From a virus (Duplodnaviria > Caudoviricetes): a stretch of 64,000 nt of DNA. The stretch spans positions 288,001-352,000 of the IMG/VR virus record IMGVR_UViG_3300027740_000003; one strand, 5' to 3'. A program made the position numbers and the translations under genes. The notes beneath the pieces are model-generated. The model made no database searches and had not been told where the DNA came from. It saw only the letters and a program-made list of their open reading frames with translations. Shown piece after piece: positions 53,082 to 59,148 of the stretch (position 1 is its first letter; each line of letters starts with the position of its first letter).

Positions 53082-53878
53082 TTTACTCTTTACTTCCGCC
53101 AAGGTTCAGTCTTAGCATTTGAGCAATGGGAGGAGGAAGATGCGTCATCTCCACGCCACAAGGGCACATGATAGCTCCATTCCTTGCTATAGACGGTTTC
53201 ACGGTCTGCCCACACCGTTGGCACTGCACAGTGAAAGCTTTGTTTACAGGCCTGTTATGAGCCGTTTGGCCCATTGATTTCATCGACACCTTCATGAAAT
53301 GAGTGACGCCTTTTATTACCTTGCCACATGAGCCACAAATTACCTCATTAGTTGCTGTATTTAAAAGGTGTTCCCCCGATTCAAAGCAACCCTTGTTATC
53401 ACACGTTATTAAGATTCCCATGTTTTTCTCCTACATAATATATATCAGAAATTTTATTCGATTATATCCTTTATTATCATGTTGTCTAAAATTTCTTCAG
53501 CAAATTCTTCCCAATCTGGACATAACATTATTATTTTAATATCATATTTAGATTGTTCTATTGCTAATTTTTGAACTTCTTTAGAAGAATTCCTTATAAA
53601 TCTAATAGAATTTCCGTTCTGTTTAACTGCTTCTAATTGTACTTCTTCGGGAGGGTTCTTTATAAAAAAAACAGAATCTCCTCTTTGTCTAACAGCTGCT
53701 AATTGTACTTCTTTAGAAGGATTTTTTATATATTGAATAGAAAGCGCATATTGTTTAACTGCTTCTAATTTTATTTCTTTAGAAGGGTTCTTTATATATT
53801 GAATAGAATTTCCATTTTGTCTAACTGCTTCTAATTTAGCTTCTTCTGAAGGATTCTTTATATATTGAATAGAATATG
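52799..53878. repeat. 132-nt identical direct repeat (52799-52930 and 53747-53878)
   Basis: Manual alignment; extends a further 14 nt after one mismatch. Confidence 0.85.
53083..53421 (-). CDS. Double zinc-ribbon protein
   Basis: CDNKGC, CGSC, CQRC, CPC; AGGAG RBS. Confidence 0.7.
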   Translation of the reverse strand: MGILITCDNKGCFESGEHLLNTATNEVICGSCGKVIKGVTHFMKVSMKSMGQTAHNRPVNKAFTVQCQRCGQTVKPSIARNGAIMCPCGVEMTHLPPPIAQMLRLNLGGSKE

Positions 53879-54041
53879 TATTTCGTTTAACCGCTTCTAA
53901 TTGCATTTCCTTTGAAAGATTTTTTATATATTGAACACAATTACCATTTCGATTAATAGCTTCAAAACAAGATAATTCATTATCAGGATCAAATCCTATA
54001 ATTTTTATATACAATTTTTTCAATTTATCTTTAGCTAACAT
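53454..54041 (-). CDS. Second 22-aa repeat protein (DUF4116-like) with C-terminal IKDIIE
   Basis: Paralog of 52506-53081 with six repeats and the same termini. Confidence 0.75.
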   Translation of the reverse strand: MLAKDKLKKLYIKIIGFDPDNELSCFEAINRNGNCVQYIKNLSKEMQLEAVKRNTYSIQYIKNPSEEAKLEAVRQNGNSIQYIKNPSKEIKLEAVKQYALSIQYIKNPSKEVQLAAVRQRGDSVFFIKNPPEEVQLEAVKQNGNSIRFIRNSSKEVQKLAIEQSKYDIKIIMLCPDWEEFAEEILDNMIIKDIIE

Positions 54042-55011
54042 TGTTTTCTTTTTCTAATAGTTCAATCAATTTAGAACAATCATCTGGATAATTTACATTT
54101 ATATTAAATATATGGCTGTTTTGATTGCCAGGCCCATATCCTTTCATTCCCATTTTTGTTCCATTTTTAGTCCCGGGATGAATCTTTAAAACTCTCTCTC
54201 CTTTAATTGTTTTTACCTTAACAGACTTTCCTTTTAAAGCTTCCAACAAAGAAATACTAATATTGGTCTCAATATTTTCCCCATCATCATCTAATCGCAT
54301 ATCCGGATCTTCCTCGACATGAACCAATACCTTTAAAGGACCATAATGATCTTGGTATCTTCCATTAATAAATCCCTGTGATGATCCTAGATAATTTCCT
54401 GCGCCATCAGCTGCAACAACAAACTTGTCTCGTAATGGGAAAGGAAGTTCAAAATCAATTGATACAGATTGTTTAACAGACCCGCCTCCATTACATTTAT
54501 CACAATCTATATTTTCTTTACCAGATCCTCCGCAGAAATTGCATACAATCATTTGTTGCATATTTCCTCTTTGGAATATTTTTCCTCCTTTACCATCACA
54601 ATGTGTACATTTGTTATTTCCTTTATGGTTTCCTTGCCCATTACAAGCGCTGCACTTTACATATTTATCATATGACACAGATCTCTTTGCCCCAACCATT
54701 GCTTCTATAAAAGTAAGACTAACTTCAACAACAGGATCTGGATATCTCTTTGGCCCACGGCTTTGATGAAACGAAGATATATTAATAAAATCTGCTATAT
54801 CTACCGGAAATCCGCCAAAATTACGTTCTGGTCTAGGATTTTCTAGAGTGGTTTTGGCTTCATTTATTTTTTTAAACTTCGCTTCTGCATCTGGAGATTT
54901 GTTTTTATCCGGATGCCATTCTTTTGCAAGTCTACGAAATGCTTGATTAATATCCTCCTTGCTTGCGCCGGGGGAAATACCAAGTTCTGAATATGCTTCT
55001 TCTGGTGTCAT
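54031..55011 (-). CDS. dnaJ: DnaJ chaperone
   Basis: J domain with HPD; four CxxCxGxG repeats; C-terminal domain. Confidence 0.92.
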   Translation of the reverse strand: MTPEEAYSELGISPGASKEDINQAFRRLAKEWHPDKNKSPDAEAKFKKINEAKTTLENPRPERNFGGFPVDIADFINISSFHQSRGPKRYPDPVVEVSLTFIEAMVGAKRSVSYDKYVKCSACNGQGNHKGNNKCTHCDGKGGKIFQRGNMQQMIVCNFCGGSGKENIDCDKCNGGGSVKQSVSIDFELPFPLRDKFVVAADGAGNYLGSSQGFINGRYQDHYGPLKVLVHVEEDPDMRLDDDGENIETNISISLLEALKGKSVKVKTIKGERVLKIHPGTKNGTKMGMKGYGPGNQNSHIFNINVNYPDDCSKLIELLEKENNVS

Positions 55012-55012
55012 A

Positions 55013-55679
55013 TTACCAATTGCCCTTCATCCAATTCTTTAAACTCCATATTTTTCCAGTTTTATGATCTACTACATTATCATCTTTTTCTCGATATGTT
55101 CTAACTTTATCTCCACGCATTCCAGAACCAACTTGGTTCTTCCTATTAGCGTTTCTATTATTAACTAATTCTTCTTTTTTTATAGCTTCTATTTTTTGAG
55201 ACAAAATAGCCAATGCTAATCTTTTACTCTGATATTGAGACTTTTCGTCTATTTTAACAGATATGCCTGTTGGAATATGTGTAGCAACAATACAACTATT
55301 TGTTGTATTTCTGTGTTGACCTCCAGGACCAGAACCTCGCTGATCTCTAATATCTATTTGGGACATATCAAGATTATTGATATTAAACTCTAATGGTTCC
55401 AAAACAGCCACAGTTATTGTTGATGTGTGAATTCTTCCTTTTTTATCTGTTGGAGAGCTTCTTTGGAACCTATGCCCTCCTGATTCATTTTTAAATATTT
55501 CTTTTACATTATTGCCAGAAAACAAAACAGATATAAAACCAGATTTTTTATCTAATAAAGAATAGTCAAAGACGCTCCCGCACTGCAACTTTCACATATA
55601 CTCCAAGCATATCTTCAACTAAGAGTTTTGCATCATCTCCGCCTTCTGCTGCTTTTATTTCTATTACTATCGATTGCAT
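55013..55679 (-). CDS. Class I peptide chain release factor lacking domain 1, expressed via +1 frameshift (about 221 aa)
   Basis: AGGAG RBS, then ATG 55679 MQSIVIEIKAAEGGDDAKLL...VRERL ending CTT TGA. The +1 frame continues DYSLL...ESGGHRFQRSSPTDKKGRIHTS...GSGPGGQHRN. Confidence 0.85.
55565..55580 (-). promoter_or_regulatory. RF2-type programmed +1 frameshift site
   Basis: CGG GAG CGT CTT TGA C: SD-like GGGAG three bases before CTT-TGA-C, the geometry of bacterial prfB (AGG GGG TAT CTT TGA C). Confidence 0.85.
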
Positions 55680-55693
55680 ATTGGTCTCCTACC

Positions 55694-55909
55694 TTATTCT
55701 ATTATATCCTTTATCATCAGATCAATTTCAGACAATTTTTCAAAACAACCATCGTTAACCAATACGCGAAAATATTCAATATCTCTTAGATGTCTAACAT
55801 AATTAAATTCTCTAAATTTATATTCAAACTCATAAAATCTACCAAAATTTGTTAGTTTATACAATATACCTTGATGAAAAGGTATGAAAAAACATATTAT
55901 TAACATCAC
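55694..55909 (-). CDS. Small hypothetical protein ending in IKDIIE
   Basis: 71 aa; ends IDLMIKDIIE. Confidence 0.55.
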   Translation of the reverse strand: MMLIICFFIPFHQGILYKLTNFGRFYEFEYKFREFNYVRHLRDIEYFRVLVNDGCFEKLSEIDLMIKDIIE

Positions 55910-55945: not shown

Positions 55946-56248
55946 TCACTCAATAATATCCTTTATCATCAAGTTATCTAATATCTCTTGTTCAAATTCT
56001 TCATCAAAATTTTGCCAATCTGGGCACATAAAAACAACCCAACAATCATATTTACTTTCTCTAATTAATGATTTTTGAAAATTAATTGACGGATTTTTAA
56101 TTCCCATACCCCTACCACCTATATATGTGCTAGTAATAGAAATTCCATAAACATTTTTCTTTTTTAAACGATCTTCATAAGTAGATTCTGCCCAAGTCTT
56201 ACATAATTTGTTTTTTACCACTTGTTTTAGTTTTTCTGACATTTCCAA
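55946..56248 (-). CDS. Small protein with one repeat unit and the IKDIIE tail
   Basis: IKNPSINFQK...CPDWQNF...ILDNLMIKDIIE. Confidence 0.65.
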   Translation of the reverse strand: MEMSEKLKQVVKNKLCKTWAESTYEDRLKKKNVYGISITSTYIGGRGMGIKNPSINFQKSLIRESKYDCWVVFMCPDWQNFDEEFEQEILDNLMIKDIIE

Positions 56249-56777
56249 TATCCAATGCGGCTTGAGCTAACGCAACGGCTATAGAATCAGCCATATCATA
56301 ATTCTCATCAGCCGGCTTTCCTTTTTTATTCAATTTCCAAGGAAAATCTGTTTTTAAAATCGCTGCCACTACTAAAGGTACATCTTCTTTTGCCAGCTTA
56401 CCAGAATAGTCTTTTGGTCGAAGTATGCTTCTTGCGGTGTTTACGTTAACCATCACCGGTGGCTTTTGCAAGGCCTCGTACACCGTTAGGCCCACCATCC
56501 TATTATAAGTTGCCAATTTTATTATCGTTTTAGATGTACTCCTCCCAGGTGCAAAAAATTCAGCAATCTCTTCAATCGCCACTACATCAGGATTCCATTC
56601 TTTTAATAATTCAATAATATATTTTTTTGTTTTAGATAAGCTTTCAAATAAATCACATTTCTTATCTGGTTTATAATATTTGCAATCTTTTAATTCAAAT
56701 AAACCGTTGTCAGATTGAATTAATGATAAGCCAATTGTTGTACTAGAACAGTCTATGCCTAAATAAAGTTTCGCCAT
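56199..56777 (-). CDS. ruvC: RuvC-like Holliday junction resolvase
   Basis: LGIDCSSTTIG, VAIEE and DMADSIAVA acidic residues; start set at MAKLY. Confidence 0.75.
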   Translation of the reverse strand: MAKLYLGIDCSSTTIGLSLIQSDNGLFELKDCKYYKPDKKCDLFESLSKTKKYIIELLKEWNPDVVAIEEIAEFFAPGRSTSKTIIKLATYNRMVGLTVYEALQKPPVMVNVNTARSILRPKDYSGKLAKEDVPLVVAAILKTDFPWKLNKKGKPADENYDMADSIAVALAQAALDIGNVRKTKTSGKKQIM

Positions 56778-56814
56778 ATACATATATATAACATATGTAG
56801 TTCCGTGTTGATTA

Positions 56815-56849
56815 ATAACAACAAGGGAGAACATAATTATGCTCTCCCT
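56815..56849 (-). terminator. Probable intrinsic terminator after the SSB gene
   Basis: Minus strand AGGGAGAGCAT-AATT-ATGTTCTCCCT followed by TGTTGTT. Confidence 0.6.
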
Positions 56850-56872
56850 CATTATCATTTGTTCAATTTTAT

Positions 56873-57547
56873 TTACTTAGCATCAGACCCATCAACTGAA
56901 GGAAAATCAGTATCTTCCTCTTCAGTCGTTTTGCTTGTTCCAGCTGCTTCAGGAGCATTACTCTCAGCCTGTGCCTTCGTATCTACTGCCTTCATTCTTT
57001 CCTCCACCTGCTCCGCAGTAGGGGGCGTACAACGCCTCTTAAGATCATCCAAATCAACCTGTTGCTTGAGTTCCAAGTCTCCTGCTGTCAGGGCCTTCTT
57101 AGGCTTTGGAATAATTGTATAGTAATTAGCCGGAACGGCCTGTTTATCAACCTTGATGTTGATATCATACTGACTTGGATCTCCCCAATCCTCCTCCCTA
57201 ACTAATTCTTGAATTCCACGAAAAGCACCAGGAGAAAGATCTAGAATCTTGAAAGCTTGTGTTTTTCGATCAATTATTCCAACTAACCAACGTTTCTGAG
57301 ACTTGAAACCTTTATCCTTTAAAGGATCTCTATCAGATCCTAGCGGTGCCAGGATCCTTACTCCGTATCCCGGATCGTCTTTATTTGTCTTGTACTTATA
57401 GACGGTGAATTCATGAGGCTTCGTAATAATACGAATCACGTTATCACCATTTCCCAACTTCATATACAAGTCTGTGCGGCCTGCATTTTGATTTGGTCTC
57501 TTAAGCTCTACTTCATCCCAATTTGTTAAACCGTATTGTACAGTCAT
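56873..57547 (-). CDS. Single-stranded DNA-binding protein (gp32-like)
   Basis: YMKLGNGDNVIRII, WGDPSQYDINI, acidic C-tail; near recA; AGGAG RBS. Confidence 0.65.
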   Translation of the reverse strand: MTVQYGLTNWDEVELKRPNQNAGRTDLYMKLGNGDNVIRIITKPHEFTVYKYKTNKDDPGYGVRILAPLGSDRDPLKDKGFKSQKRWLVGIIDRKTQAFKILDLSPGAFRGIQELVREEDWGDPSQYDINIKVDKQAVPANYYTIIPKPKKALTAGDLELKQQVDLDDLKRRCTPPTAEQVEERMKAVDTKAQAESNAPEAAGTSKTTEEEDTDFPSVDGSDAK

Positions 57548-57549
57548 TG

Positions 57550-57918
57550 TTAACTCCTATTTTTATGCTTGTATGTTATATTTTCGATGCTAACTATTTT
57601 TGTCCAGGGAACCCTCATGTTAACTACCTTAACGGATCCCTTTTCGACATAATTAACAACATCCTCAAACGAATTAATAGCATTTATTTGAGTCTTGCCT
57701 GCTTTGAATCCAAAAAAATCACATAGTATTGAATTTTCTTCTCTTACTTGTTTTAAAAGTAAGTAAGTTGCAACACCTGTTTTTTCTGATGGATCCTCCA
57801 CACGAAGTGTATATACTGGTCCACTGACCACTTCTTTCATTCTTGCATTAGCAAGAGCTAATGCAGTTGCTTCTTGAGGTTTTTCCTCTATCACCTCTTT
57901 GTTCTTTATCAATTTCAT
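57550..57918 (-). CDS. Hypothetical protein
   Basis: 122 aa, AAGGG RBS. Confidence 0.6.
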   Translation of the reverse strand: MKLIKNKEVIEEKPQEATALALANARMKEVVSGPVYTLRVEDPSEKTGVATYLLLKQVREENSILCDFFGFKAGKTQINAINSFEDVVNYVEKGSVKVVNMRVPWTKIVSIENITYKHKNRS

Positions 57919-57981
57919 CTTTCTTCCCTTCTAAAATAGCCGCCCAATTCTGATTGTTGAAAACTCACCTCCGATTATGAA

Positions 57982-59148
57982 TTAGGCGGGTTGATCTTCT
58001 TCCTCATCTAATTTGCCAATAACAGCGGCTTGTTCTTCCTTCTTCTTAGCTCTTTCTGTCTCTCTTGCTTTATCTATATCGGTAATTAGAGAGTCTGCTA
58101 ATTTTTTATCTTCTTTAATTGCGTCTAGAGTTTTCGGTTTACCTGTCCATTTTAATTCGCCATACTCATAAGTTTTCTCTGTAGGCTTCTTTAGAATGTT
58201 GTACTTGCAAGCAAGCTCGAAAATTTCTTCCTCAATATTAACAATTCCAACCCGGAAATCTACAGTAAATTCACACTTGCGGGGCCAAGGACCAAATTTA
58301 GACTTCTCCACCGTTGCTAGAATTACTCCGCCAATCTTTTCCTCATTTTCATCAAACAACGTTTTGTCCTTTGATTTAGACATTTTGAAATACACATTGC
58401 AGCTCAATGTGTGGTTCAACGTATTTCCGCCTGAAAATGTATGATCTGCTCCATACGGATCCATACTGTCTTTTTTATGGTTAATTATAATAAATGGAAT
58501 ATCAGCCCTATTAACTTCAAGAACTAATCTTTTAAGCTCTTTTGTCAAGAATCTGGCCATAAGACCAAAATTCATCTTGCCAACGGGAGCTGTATCTTCT
58601 CCAGGTGGAATAAGTTGTCCAAGAGAATCTAGAACAATTAAGTTAAAATTAAGTTCACCGCTAGCAATTTTATCTAACAGACCTTCTGTTTTCTTTCCTT
58701 TATACGCATGTGTTTTTGCATCTTCTTTTGGTTCTCCCAAAAGCATTGTAAAACAGCGTCTGCCATTAGCAGCTTGTTCACCATCAACAATAACAACTTT
58801 TCTTGGGTCTATTCCTAGCTGAATTGCCCAGTCTTGCGAATATGTTTGTTCAGCATCTATGAATATTTGCCTTGCTTTAGGATCTTCTTTTTGTGCCTGT
58901 TTTATCGCAAGCATAGACAAAAGAGTTTTGCCACAGCCACTTTCGCCATAATATTGAATAACTCTTCCCTTAGGAAGACCCCCGGATGATAAGGCATCAT
59001 CAAGTGCTAACGATCCCGTTCTTATCACTGGTAATTTGTCATATAATATTGCGTCTGAAAAATGGAAATTTATCTCTCCATCTATCTCTGCGAATCCTTG
59101 AAAAAATGCAGAAACTTTATCATTTATATTGTTTTTCTTTGTTGCCAT
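57982..59148 (-). CDS. recA: RecA/UvsX-like recombinase
   Basis: TGSLALDDALSSGGLPKGR, GESGCGKT Walker A, FIDAE, IVLDS Walker B. Confidence 0.92.
   Translation of the reverse strand: MATKKNNINDKVSAFFQGFAEIDGEINFHFSDAILYDKLPVIRTGSLALDDALSSGGLPKGRVIQYYGESGCGKTLLSMLAIKQAQKEDPKARQIFIDAEQTYSQDWAIQLGIDPRKVVIVDGEQAANGRRCFTMLLGEPKEDAKTHAYKGKKTEGLLDKIASGELNFNLIVLDSLGQLIPPGEDTAPVGKMNFGLMARFLTKELKRLVLEVNRADIPFIIINHKKDSMDPYGADHTFSGGNTLNHTLSCNVYFKMSKSKDKTLFDENEEKIGGVILATVEKSKFGPWPRKCEFTVDFRVGIVNIEEEIFELACKYNILKKPTEKTYEYGELKWTGKPKTLDAIKEDKKLADSLITDIDKARETERAKKKEEQAAVIGKLDEEEDQPA

Follow-up and report, generated by a model that had tools for sequence, protein, structure and literature searches.

Does a gene that breaks off at a stop codon within a release factor domain, and continues in another reading frame, encode a single protein made by programmed frameshifting, and what would such a break control? 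The question is raised by a locus on the minus strand of a 64-kb stretch (hereafter the window) of the 435,004-bp IMG/VR virus record IMGVR_UViG_3300027740_000003, an uncultured member of the Caudoviricetes. To our knowledge, the +1 frameshift at a Shine–Dalgarno (SD) element followed by CUU-UGA-C is a textbook case of recoding that is regarded as unique to prfB. The autoregulatory prfB frameshift, with the signal SD-N3-CUU-UGA-C, was reportedly described by Craigen and Caskey in 1986 and by Baranov and colleagues in 2002. The analysis below indicates that the locus probably encodes a 221-residue RF1-type factor, which is made only by programmed +1 frameshifting and would supply extra termination capacity when the cell runs short of it.

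Anatomy of the shift site

The gene starts with an ATG at position 55679, and a ribosome-binding site, AGGAG (55686..55690), can be read 6 nt 5' of it; all window features described here lie on the minus strand. From this ATG, ORF1 runs in frame 0 over codons 1–37 up to a CTT (55569..55679) and matches the Pfam PCRF model at positions 100–132 and the NCBIfam RF1 model at positions 104–137. After these 37 codons, frame 0 ends with CGG GAG CGT CTT TGA C. The shift site itself, CTT TGA C (55565..55571), consists of the slippery leucine codon CTT (55571-55569), the in-frame TGA (55568-55566), and a C in the +4 position (55565), which constitutes a weak termination context. An internal SD-like element, GGGAG (55575..55579), is separated from the slippery codon by 3 nt (CGT), the same spacing as in prfB.

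The +1 frame is open for 184 codons, from GAC (55567-55565) to a TAA (55015-55013). This ORF2, codons 38–221 from GAC to TGG (55016..55567), matches PCRF at 154–194, the Pfam RF-1 model (E 2e-20), and the NCBIfam RF1 model with 158 bits. It carries the decoding tripeptide Ser75-Pro76-Thr77 (SPT; 55448..55456), which alignment to RF1 places at the site of the RF1 PxT and RF2 SPF motifs, and the catalytic GGQ (G119-G120-Q121; 55316..55324), which is evident from the sequence and from the family alignment. The true terminator, a TAA followed by T and thus in a strong context (55013..55015), overlaps the start of a DnaJ gene in the sequence TAATATG.

The ORF1 product corresponds to the first strand and helix of release factor domain 2, including an EGGDD motif (equivalent to G116/E119 of RF1), and the ORF2 product to the remainder of domain 2, domain 3 with the GGQ, and domain 4 (RF1 model positions 157–330). 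Because the profile matches of the two ORFs are colinear, they represent consecutive parts of one release factor, and the joined protein, P0001, has 221 residues and no further stop. Sequence and profile matches therefore bear out the anatomy given in an earlier note on this DNA, which had described a ribosome-binding site, 37 codons of domain-2 sequence, CTT-TGA-C, and the rest of the gene in the +1 frame. The program-made ORF list shows two separate ORFs of 37 and 191 residues, the latter with a TTG start at 55588.

Reading the TGA as tryptophan extends frame 0 by 5 codons, after which a TAA follows; since frame-0 read-through leads into this dead end, the full protein can arise only by a +1 shift. 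The motif GGAG-N3-CTTTGAC occurs once in the 64-kb window, versus 0.00 times expected from 100 shuffles. As CGG makes up only 5.4% of the arginine codons in this AT-rich phage genome, GGGAG looks selected at the nucleotide level. A downstream RNA stimulator was not found, the predicted fold of 55620-55500 being no better than that of shuffled sequences (z = -0.94). The prfB frameshift needs no downstream RNA structure.

An RF1-type factor without domain 1

Compared with known release factors, P0001 aligns best to residues 107–318 of Thermus thermophilus RF1 (E 4e-37), followed by RF2 (1e-22) and PrfH (1e-14). The NCBIfam scores rank in the same order, with 158 bits for RF1, 98 for RF2, and 83 for PrfH. 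The RF1 model (TIGR00019 / NF001859) is matched from model position 104 onwards with a score below its cut-off of 400, and the PrfH score (TIGR03072) lies below the cut-off of 167. RF2-type features, namely an SPF tripeptide and a frameshift site near codon 26 in domain 1, are replaced by SPT and a site at codon 38 in domain 2. As P0001 starts where domain 2 of RF1 starts, it has no domain 1, and by its sequence we place it among the class-I release factors, as an RF1-type member missing this domain. This agrees with the earlier observation that the factor is RF1-like and that the site is within its domain 2, unlike the prfB site, which belongs to domain 1.

An AlphaFold2 model of P0001, built with a 30-sequence alignment, reached a mean pLDDT of 89.2. 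It superimposes on ribosome-bound RF1 with a TMq of 0.93 and an rmsd of 1.6 Å, and on PrfH with a TMq of 0.70. In the model, the frameshift junction L37/D38 falls in a loop between the helix of residues 15–34 and the strand of residues 38–45 (pLDDT about 95). Q72, H84, and T85 are the equivalents of T. thermophilus RF1 Q181, H193, and T194, which read the third base of the stop codon. These three residues and the GGQ are present together with the tripeptide, which is SPT in the window gene and PPT in the family consensus. Across the family alignment, Pro76, G119, and G120 are invariant, and Thr77 and Q121 each show a conservation of at least 90%. RF1 without domain 1 catalyzes peptide release in vitro and is functional in vivo; domain 1 is dispensable for codon-specific release and required for the action of RF3 (PMC1586002).

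Conservation of the frameshift cassette

P0001 alone retrieved no relatives from IMG/VR, and an alignment query gave 397 loci, the best 80 of which were fetched. In 26 of these best 80 of 397, the tblastn match moves at query residue 37 from frame 1 into frame 2. At the junction, all 26 carry CTT plus a stop codon (TGA in 22, TAG in 4, TAA in 0), and the base after the 22 junction TGAs is C in 12 cases, G in 6, and A in 4. After inclusion of the window's cassette and removal of one duplicate locus, 26 unique cassettes were compared, whose consensus is CGGAGG-N3-CTT-T(GA/AG). An SD-like 4-mer at the prfB spacing is found in 21 of the 26, versus 1 of 34 read-through contexts, and five of the 26 have no clear SD. 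The TAG in four relatives and these five cassettes indicate less strict rules than those of prfB.

The frame-switching homologs are 43–60% identical to the window protein, and their ORF1 parts are 46–72% identical in the frame-0 HSPs. In a maximum-likelihood tree, the frameshifting members group in a single clade with good support, within which members are separated by more than 1 substitution per site; the window gene lies inside the phage family, with L002 as its sister. At the other extreme, L029 (TGA) and L052 (TAG) are a near-identical pair that differs only in the gate codon. Three contigs from metagenome-assembled genomes (MAGs) carry the same cassette in the same alignment column. The same frame change at an invariant CTT-stop in such diverged homologs argues for a control switch and against an error, and the cassette, judged by the divergence of the sequences that carry it, is old and under purifying selection. 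The earlier note had proposed a +1 frameshift, programmed in the manner of prfB, for a phage release factor gene and had named conservation of the motif in homologs as a check; as 26 diverged homologs share CTT and a stop at this codon, mostly with an SD 3 nt before it, this proposal is now strongly supported.

As a side observation, L115, L116, and L126 are short release factor genes with CTT TGA C in MAGs labelled Sandaracinaceae, Hydrogenophilales, and proteobacterium. Possibly these are prophages, or else phage contigs that ended up in bacterial bins, and they might give a clue to hosts.

Two simpler accounts of the locus can be weighed on this evidence. A single missing or extra base in one metagenome contig would give such a picture, whether through a sequencing or assembly indel or in a decaying pseudogene, but we consider this origin next to negligible. 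The same codon is affected in 26 independent IMG/VR contigs and 3 MAG contigs; CTT-stop never varies among them, even with protein identity down to about 45%, and both ORFs are conserved at the protein level. Furthermore, a second assembler produced an identical sequence: a Logan contig across the stretch has a depth of 26 with 0 differences and 0 gaps, although it probably stems from the source sample and hence speaks only against an assembly slip. The Logan runs X3 (groundwater) and X4 (wetland) contain only short or diverged pieces, none bridging the site, and have no bearing either way. It is also highly improbable, if slightly less so, that the locus makes two separate products, with ORF2 starting on its own and ORF1 encoding a small peptide. 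The ORF list does give a TTG start (55588) for the 191-residue ORF, and GGGAG could be read as its ribosome-binding site. Against this, the first 40 nt after GGGAG contain no ATG, GTG, or TTG in the +1 frame, and the TTG at 55588 has no SD before it. An independently started ORF2 would moreover be without the strand and helix that carry the U1-recognizing EGGDD tip. Across the family, the end of ORF1 is the exact start of ORF2 homology, and six plain homologs as well as cellular RF1 encode both parts as one chain.

In-frame stops across the wider phage family

Of the fetched homologs, 54 align in one frame, and 48 of these contain one or two in-frame stops each, amounting to 63 TGA and 4 TAG at codons 36–54. 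These stops occupy six alignment columns, corresponding to window residues 37–52. The commonest column, with stops in 22 genes, is that of the frameshift leucine, and it coincides with the Trp/Phe position of the RF1 motif 'RRGW'. In-frame TGAs are often found at tryptophan positions of homologs (48 loci among L004 and L008-L080). Counting the 80 homologs and the window gene together, an internal stop is present in 75 of 81 family genes and absent from 6. The base after the internal TGAs (n=86) is A in 34, C in 38, G in 14, and T in none, and T follows one of the 8 internal TAGs; at the gene ends, T follows the stop in 51 of the 81 genes.

Two relatives with genes of the read-through type, G001 (318 kb; gene with in-frame stops at G001:C1:5310-5972) and G003 (321 kb; G003:C1:63084-63731), use the standard code, with TGA as a terminator. 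Both encode their own tRNA-Trp(CCA), and in both the release factor gene lies inside a tRNA cluster. A UGA suppressor tRNA was found in neither of the two whole genomes. Among the cross-genome HSPs that we examined (29 in G001, 24 in G003), the release factor gene is the only genuine gene with an internal stop. One G001 HSP with two TGAs proved to be an antisense-frame artefact. Another, with a single TAA, was taken as a gene boundary. Treating TAG or TGA as sense brought no gain in coding density or ORF length in the window genome, G001, or G003, and a reassigned code was therefore rejected. The in-frame-stop relatives look like cases of gene-specific read-through gating, a pattern that the earlier note does not describe. 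From these comparisons it appears that the family places a weak stop, one served by a single release factor, about 40–50 codons into its own gene, and that ribosomes get past this stop by slipping +1 in one clade and, in the remaining ones, presumably by near-cognate (Trp) read-through.

The phage family of short RF1-like proteins is characterized by a length of about 220 residues, domains 2–4, a [P/S]-P-T loop, and an internal stop within codons 34–54, and the window gene fits this description. In a tree with 40 cellular RF1 sequences, the phage family forms a separate clade with a support of 1.0. Among the best 80 matches in GTDB, 78 are full-length, and 73 are long, in-frame, stop-free genes, i.e. 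cellular prfA from organisms other than Mycoplasmataceae; no recoding was seen in any of these 73 full-length genes. Four matches from Mycoplasmataceae contain in-frame TGA, as expected of code 4.

A search of public protein sets returned thousands of relatives, of which the best 120 were inspected. About three quarters of these best 120 are 160–213 residues long and lack the N-terminal 35–50 residues. Gene callers systematically mis-annotate members of the family, apparently as ORF2 only, so that annotation pipelines miss these release factor genes. In some of the database entries, the N-terminus is junk translated from the +1 frame.

Relation to known release factor genes

Like prfB, whose frameshift has been reviewed (Atkins et al, 2016; PMC5009743) and surveyed (Prince et al, 2025; PMC12421855), the phage gene places an SD-like element 3 nt before CUU, which is followed directly by an in-frame UGA and, in the +4 position, by C. 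Also shared are a short ORF1, a functional class-I release factor in the +1 frame, and the lack of a downstream RNA structure. The survey, which covered more than 12,000 bacterial genomes, reported TGA in 98.6% of 8,164 prfB cassettes and TAG in none (PMC12421855), whereas UAG occurs in 4 of 26 cassettes of the phage family. In contrast to prfB, moreover, the phage gene is of RF1 type and without domain 1, its site belongs to domain 2 (codon 38) and not to domain 1 (codon 26), its gate UGA is a codon that RF1-type factors do not read, and the family is phage-borne. The RF1 type, the missing domain 1, and the position in domain 2 together mean that the cassette arose independently of prfB.

Cellular RF1 is the best match to the phage factor in sequence and structure, and the phage factor has the GGQ, a switch-loop region, and residues equivalent to Q181, H193, and T194. 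It differs from prfA products in its length (221 versus about 360 residues), in its tripeptide (SPT, or PPT in the family, versus P-[AVI]-T), and in being recoded at all. The absence of recoding from cellular prfA agrees with the survey, in which no prfA frameshift proved credible (Prince et al, 2025; PMC12421855), and with a review comment by W. Tate that the RF1 family is without the frameshift (PMC1586002). Early in-frame stops with read-through were stated to be unknown in bacterial release factor genes (Atkins et al, 2016; PMC5009743). A shared feature of the phage genes, Mimivirus and Megavirus eRF1, where read-through is combined with a frameshift (PMC3521657), and plant eRF1, which is autoregulated by read-through (PMC5397192), is that expression of a release factor depends on failed termination at an internal stop. 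Those factors, however, are of the eukaryotic type, with an unrelated fold and other signals, whereas the present one is a bacterial-type factor in a phage. Phage-encoded class-I release factors as such are found in Lak, crAss-like, and Jade phages, in which full-length RF1 and RF2 have been suggested to serve a change of code throughout the genome; recoding of the release factor genes themselves is not mentioned there (bioRxiv 10.1101/2021.08.26.457843). In contrast to these, the factor described here is truncated and gated by recoding, and the phage and two of its relatives use the standard code.

A full-text search of the literature turned up no paper on an RF1-type phage gene that is expressed by frameshifting or read-through, and the family-wide recoding design is apparently undescribed. 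A prfB-like cassette occurs in another release factor lineage, at another position of the protein, in phages, with amber variants, and next to relatives that arrive at the same result by read-through, which shows that strong, repeated selection couples release factor synthesis to failed termination.

Another bacterial relative is PrfH (RF-H), a domain-1-less release factor homolog that is paired with RtcB and rescues damaged ribosomes. We know of no recoding described for prfH. The phage factor resembles PrfH in lacking domain 1 while keeping domains 2–4 and the GGQ, but it retains the RF1-type residues that read the stop codon, and its match to PrfH is far weaker. No RtcB gene was found in the 435-kb phage genome, and a PrfH–RtcB rescue module was ruled out on this basis.

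What the stop gate may sense

From the identity of the signals with the anatomy of prfB, we infer an SD-stimulated slip. After 37 codons, the ribosome would pause with UGA-C, a weak termination signal, in its A site and peptidyl-tRNA-Leu on CUU in its P site, and GGGAG, 3 bases upstream, would pair with the anti-SD of 16S rRNA. The tRNA-Leu could then re-pair from CUU to UUU, GAC would be read next in the +1 frame, and the junction would read ...RERL-DYSLL.... Termination at UGA would compete with the slip, raising the yield of full-length factor where termination is slow and lowering it where it is fast. The phage would in this way make added termination capacity only when the infected cell is short of it. 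We infer both the dependence of yield on the termination rate and the identity of the factor that closes the loop; synthesis is most likely gated by slow UGA termination.

RF1 does not read UGA, and TAA is read by both host release factors. Given the RF1-like decoding residues of the phage factor, its UGA gate would therefore differ from the self-specific feedback of prfB, and a benefit to the phage is presumed. In the loop that we prefer, the RF1-like factor would take over UAA and UAG and free host RF2 for UGA. In that case the UGA gate would gauge how much host RF2 is free, and the factor could replenish this pool indirectly via UAA, the commonest stop. That the factor acts as a sensor of host RF2 specifically is plausible, and its RF1-like decoding residues fit such cross-sensing. 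Against this reading, among 371 long ORFs of the phage, 188 end in TAA, 147 in TGA, and 36 in TAG, so about 40% use TGA, the stop that an RF1-type factor would not serve.

The same distribution can be read in favor of direct autoregulation as in prfB, where a hybrid SPT factor that is omnipotent or at least UGA-competent would shut off its own synthesis as it accumulates. SPT combines the Ser and Pro of RF2 with the Thr of RF1, and its middle Pro, which is also that of SPF, does not vary across the family. According to Ito and colleagues in 2000, Ser in the first position reportedly allows A or G as second base, and Thr in the third position allows A or G as third base. The swap of TGA for TAG between L029 and L052 would also be easy if the factor read both codons. 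Most TGA-gated members, however, have PPT, a normal RF1-type PxT, along with the equivalents of Q181 and T194. The tripeptide and the gate codon are uncorrelated, PPT and SPT each occurring with TGA and TAG, and omnipotent variants of bacterial release factors also terminate on UGG, which is toxic (PMC7530605). We regard such autoregulation as doubtful, though it deserves more credit than a gate that senses nothing. In the latter case, the site would be a constitutive attenuator that sets a fixed low ratio of a toxic-prone factor to a discarded 37-residue peptide. Over-expression of release factors does lower fitness, more so for RF2 than for RF1 (PMC12421855), and the leaky in-frame stops of the relatives would reduce the yield as well. 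A weak ribosome-binding site or promoter would do the same at less cost, though, and two recoding mechanisms have converged on a stop codon and never on a stop-free slippery site. These stops are in weak contexts, TAA, read by both host factors, is never used, and the same cassette responds to the RF2 level in prfB (PMC5009743), all of which make a mere attenuator improbable.

Returning to a gate that responds to termination, the L029/L052 pair and the missing correlation between gate and tripeptide fit a factor of broad specificity or the sensing of termination capacity in general. It is a tentative possibility, to which we give somewhat less than an even chance, that the phage-specific family acts as a termination homeostat, with a stop gate (usually UGA) that is passed by +1 slip or Trp read-through, senses host RF2, and leads to takeover of UAA/UAG, or else that the [P/S]PT loop makes its members the first natural omnipotent release factors of bacterial type. 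If true, either would mean that infected cells regulate the termination of translation by a logic that is new. The family also offers a natural experiment on what the cassette senses, and it suggests that termination capacity is among the resources managed by huge phages, beside tRNAs, tmRNA, trigger factor, and DnaJ.

Genome and gene neighborhood

The 435,004-bp phage genome has a GC content of 35%, uses the standard code, and encodes 21 tRNAs, one of them with anticodon CUA, and a tmRNA. By its anticodon, the tRNA(CUA), which like the next two genes lies outside the window, is an amber suppressor (G000:C1:148687-148760, minus strand); the tmRNA (G000:C1:97812-98149, minus strand) has the tag ANDNADLTAAAA, and a further tRNA-like gene (G000:C1:79260-79333, minus strand) has an odd anticodon loop. 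The same two kinds of gene, for tRNA(CUA) and for tmRNA, occur in G003. An amber suppressor and an RF1-type factor would oppose each other at UAG, and the phage genome is without TAG recoding.

Directly downstream of the release factor gene lies the DnaJ gene (54031-55011), whose product has a J domain, a zinc finger (CXXCXGXG), and a C-terminal domain. The TAATATG overlap suggests translational coupling of the termination factor and the co-chaperone. Upstream, a recombination module (56199-59148) contains a RuvC-like resolvase (56202-56780), a RecA-family recombinase (57985-59148), and two ORFs without a Pfam family. Three small ORFs in this region (53454-54041, 55694-55909, and 55946-56248), otherwise unlike each other, share the C-terminus ...IKDIIE. 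The DNA encoding this tail (55694-55740) is repeated at many places in Logan contigs of the same phage, and the 195-residue ORF that ends in IKDIIE contains DUF4116 repeats.
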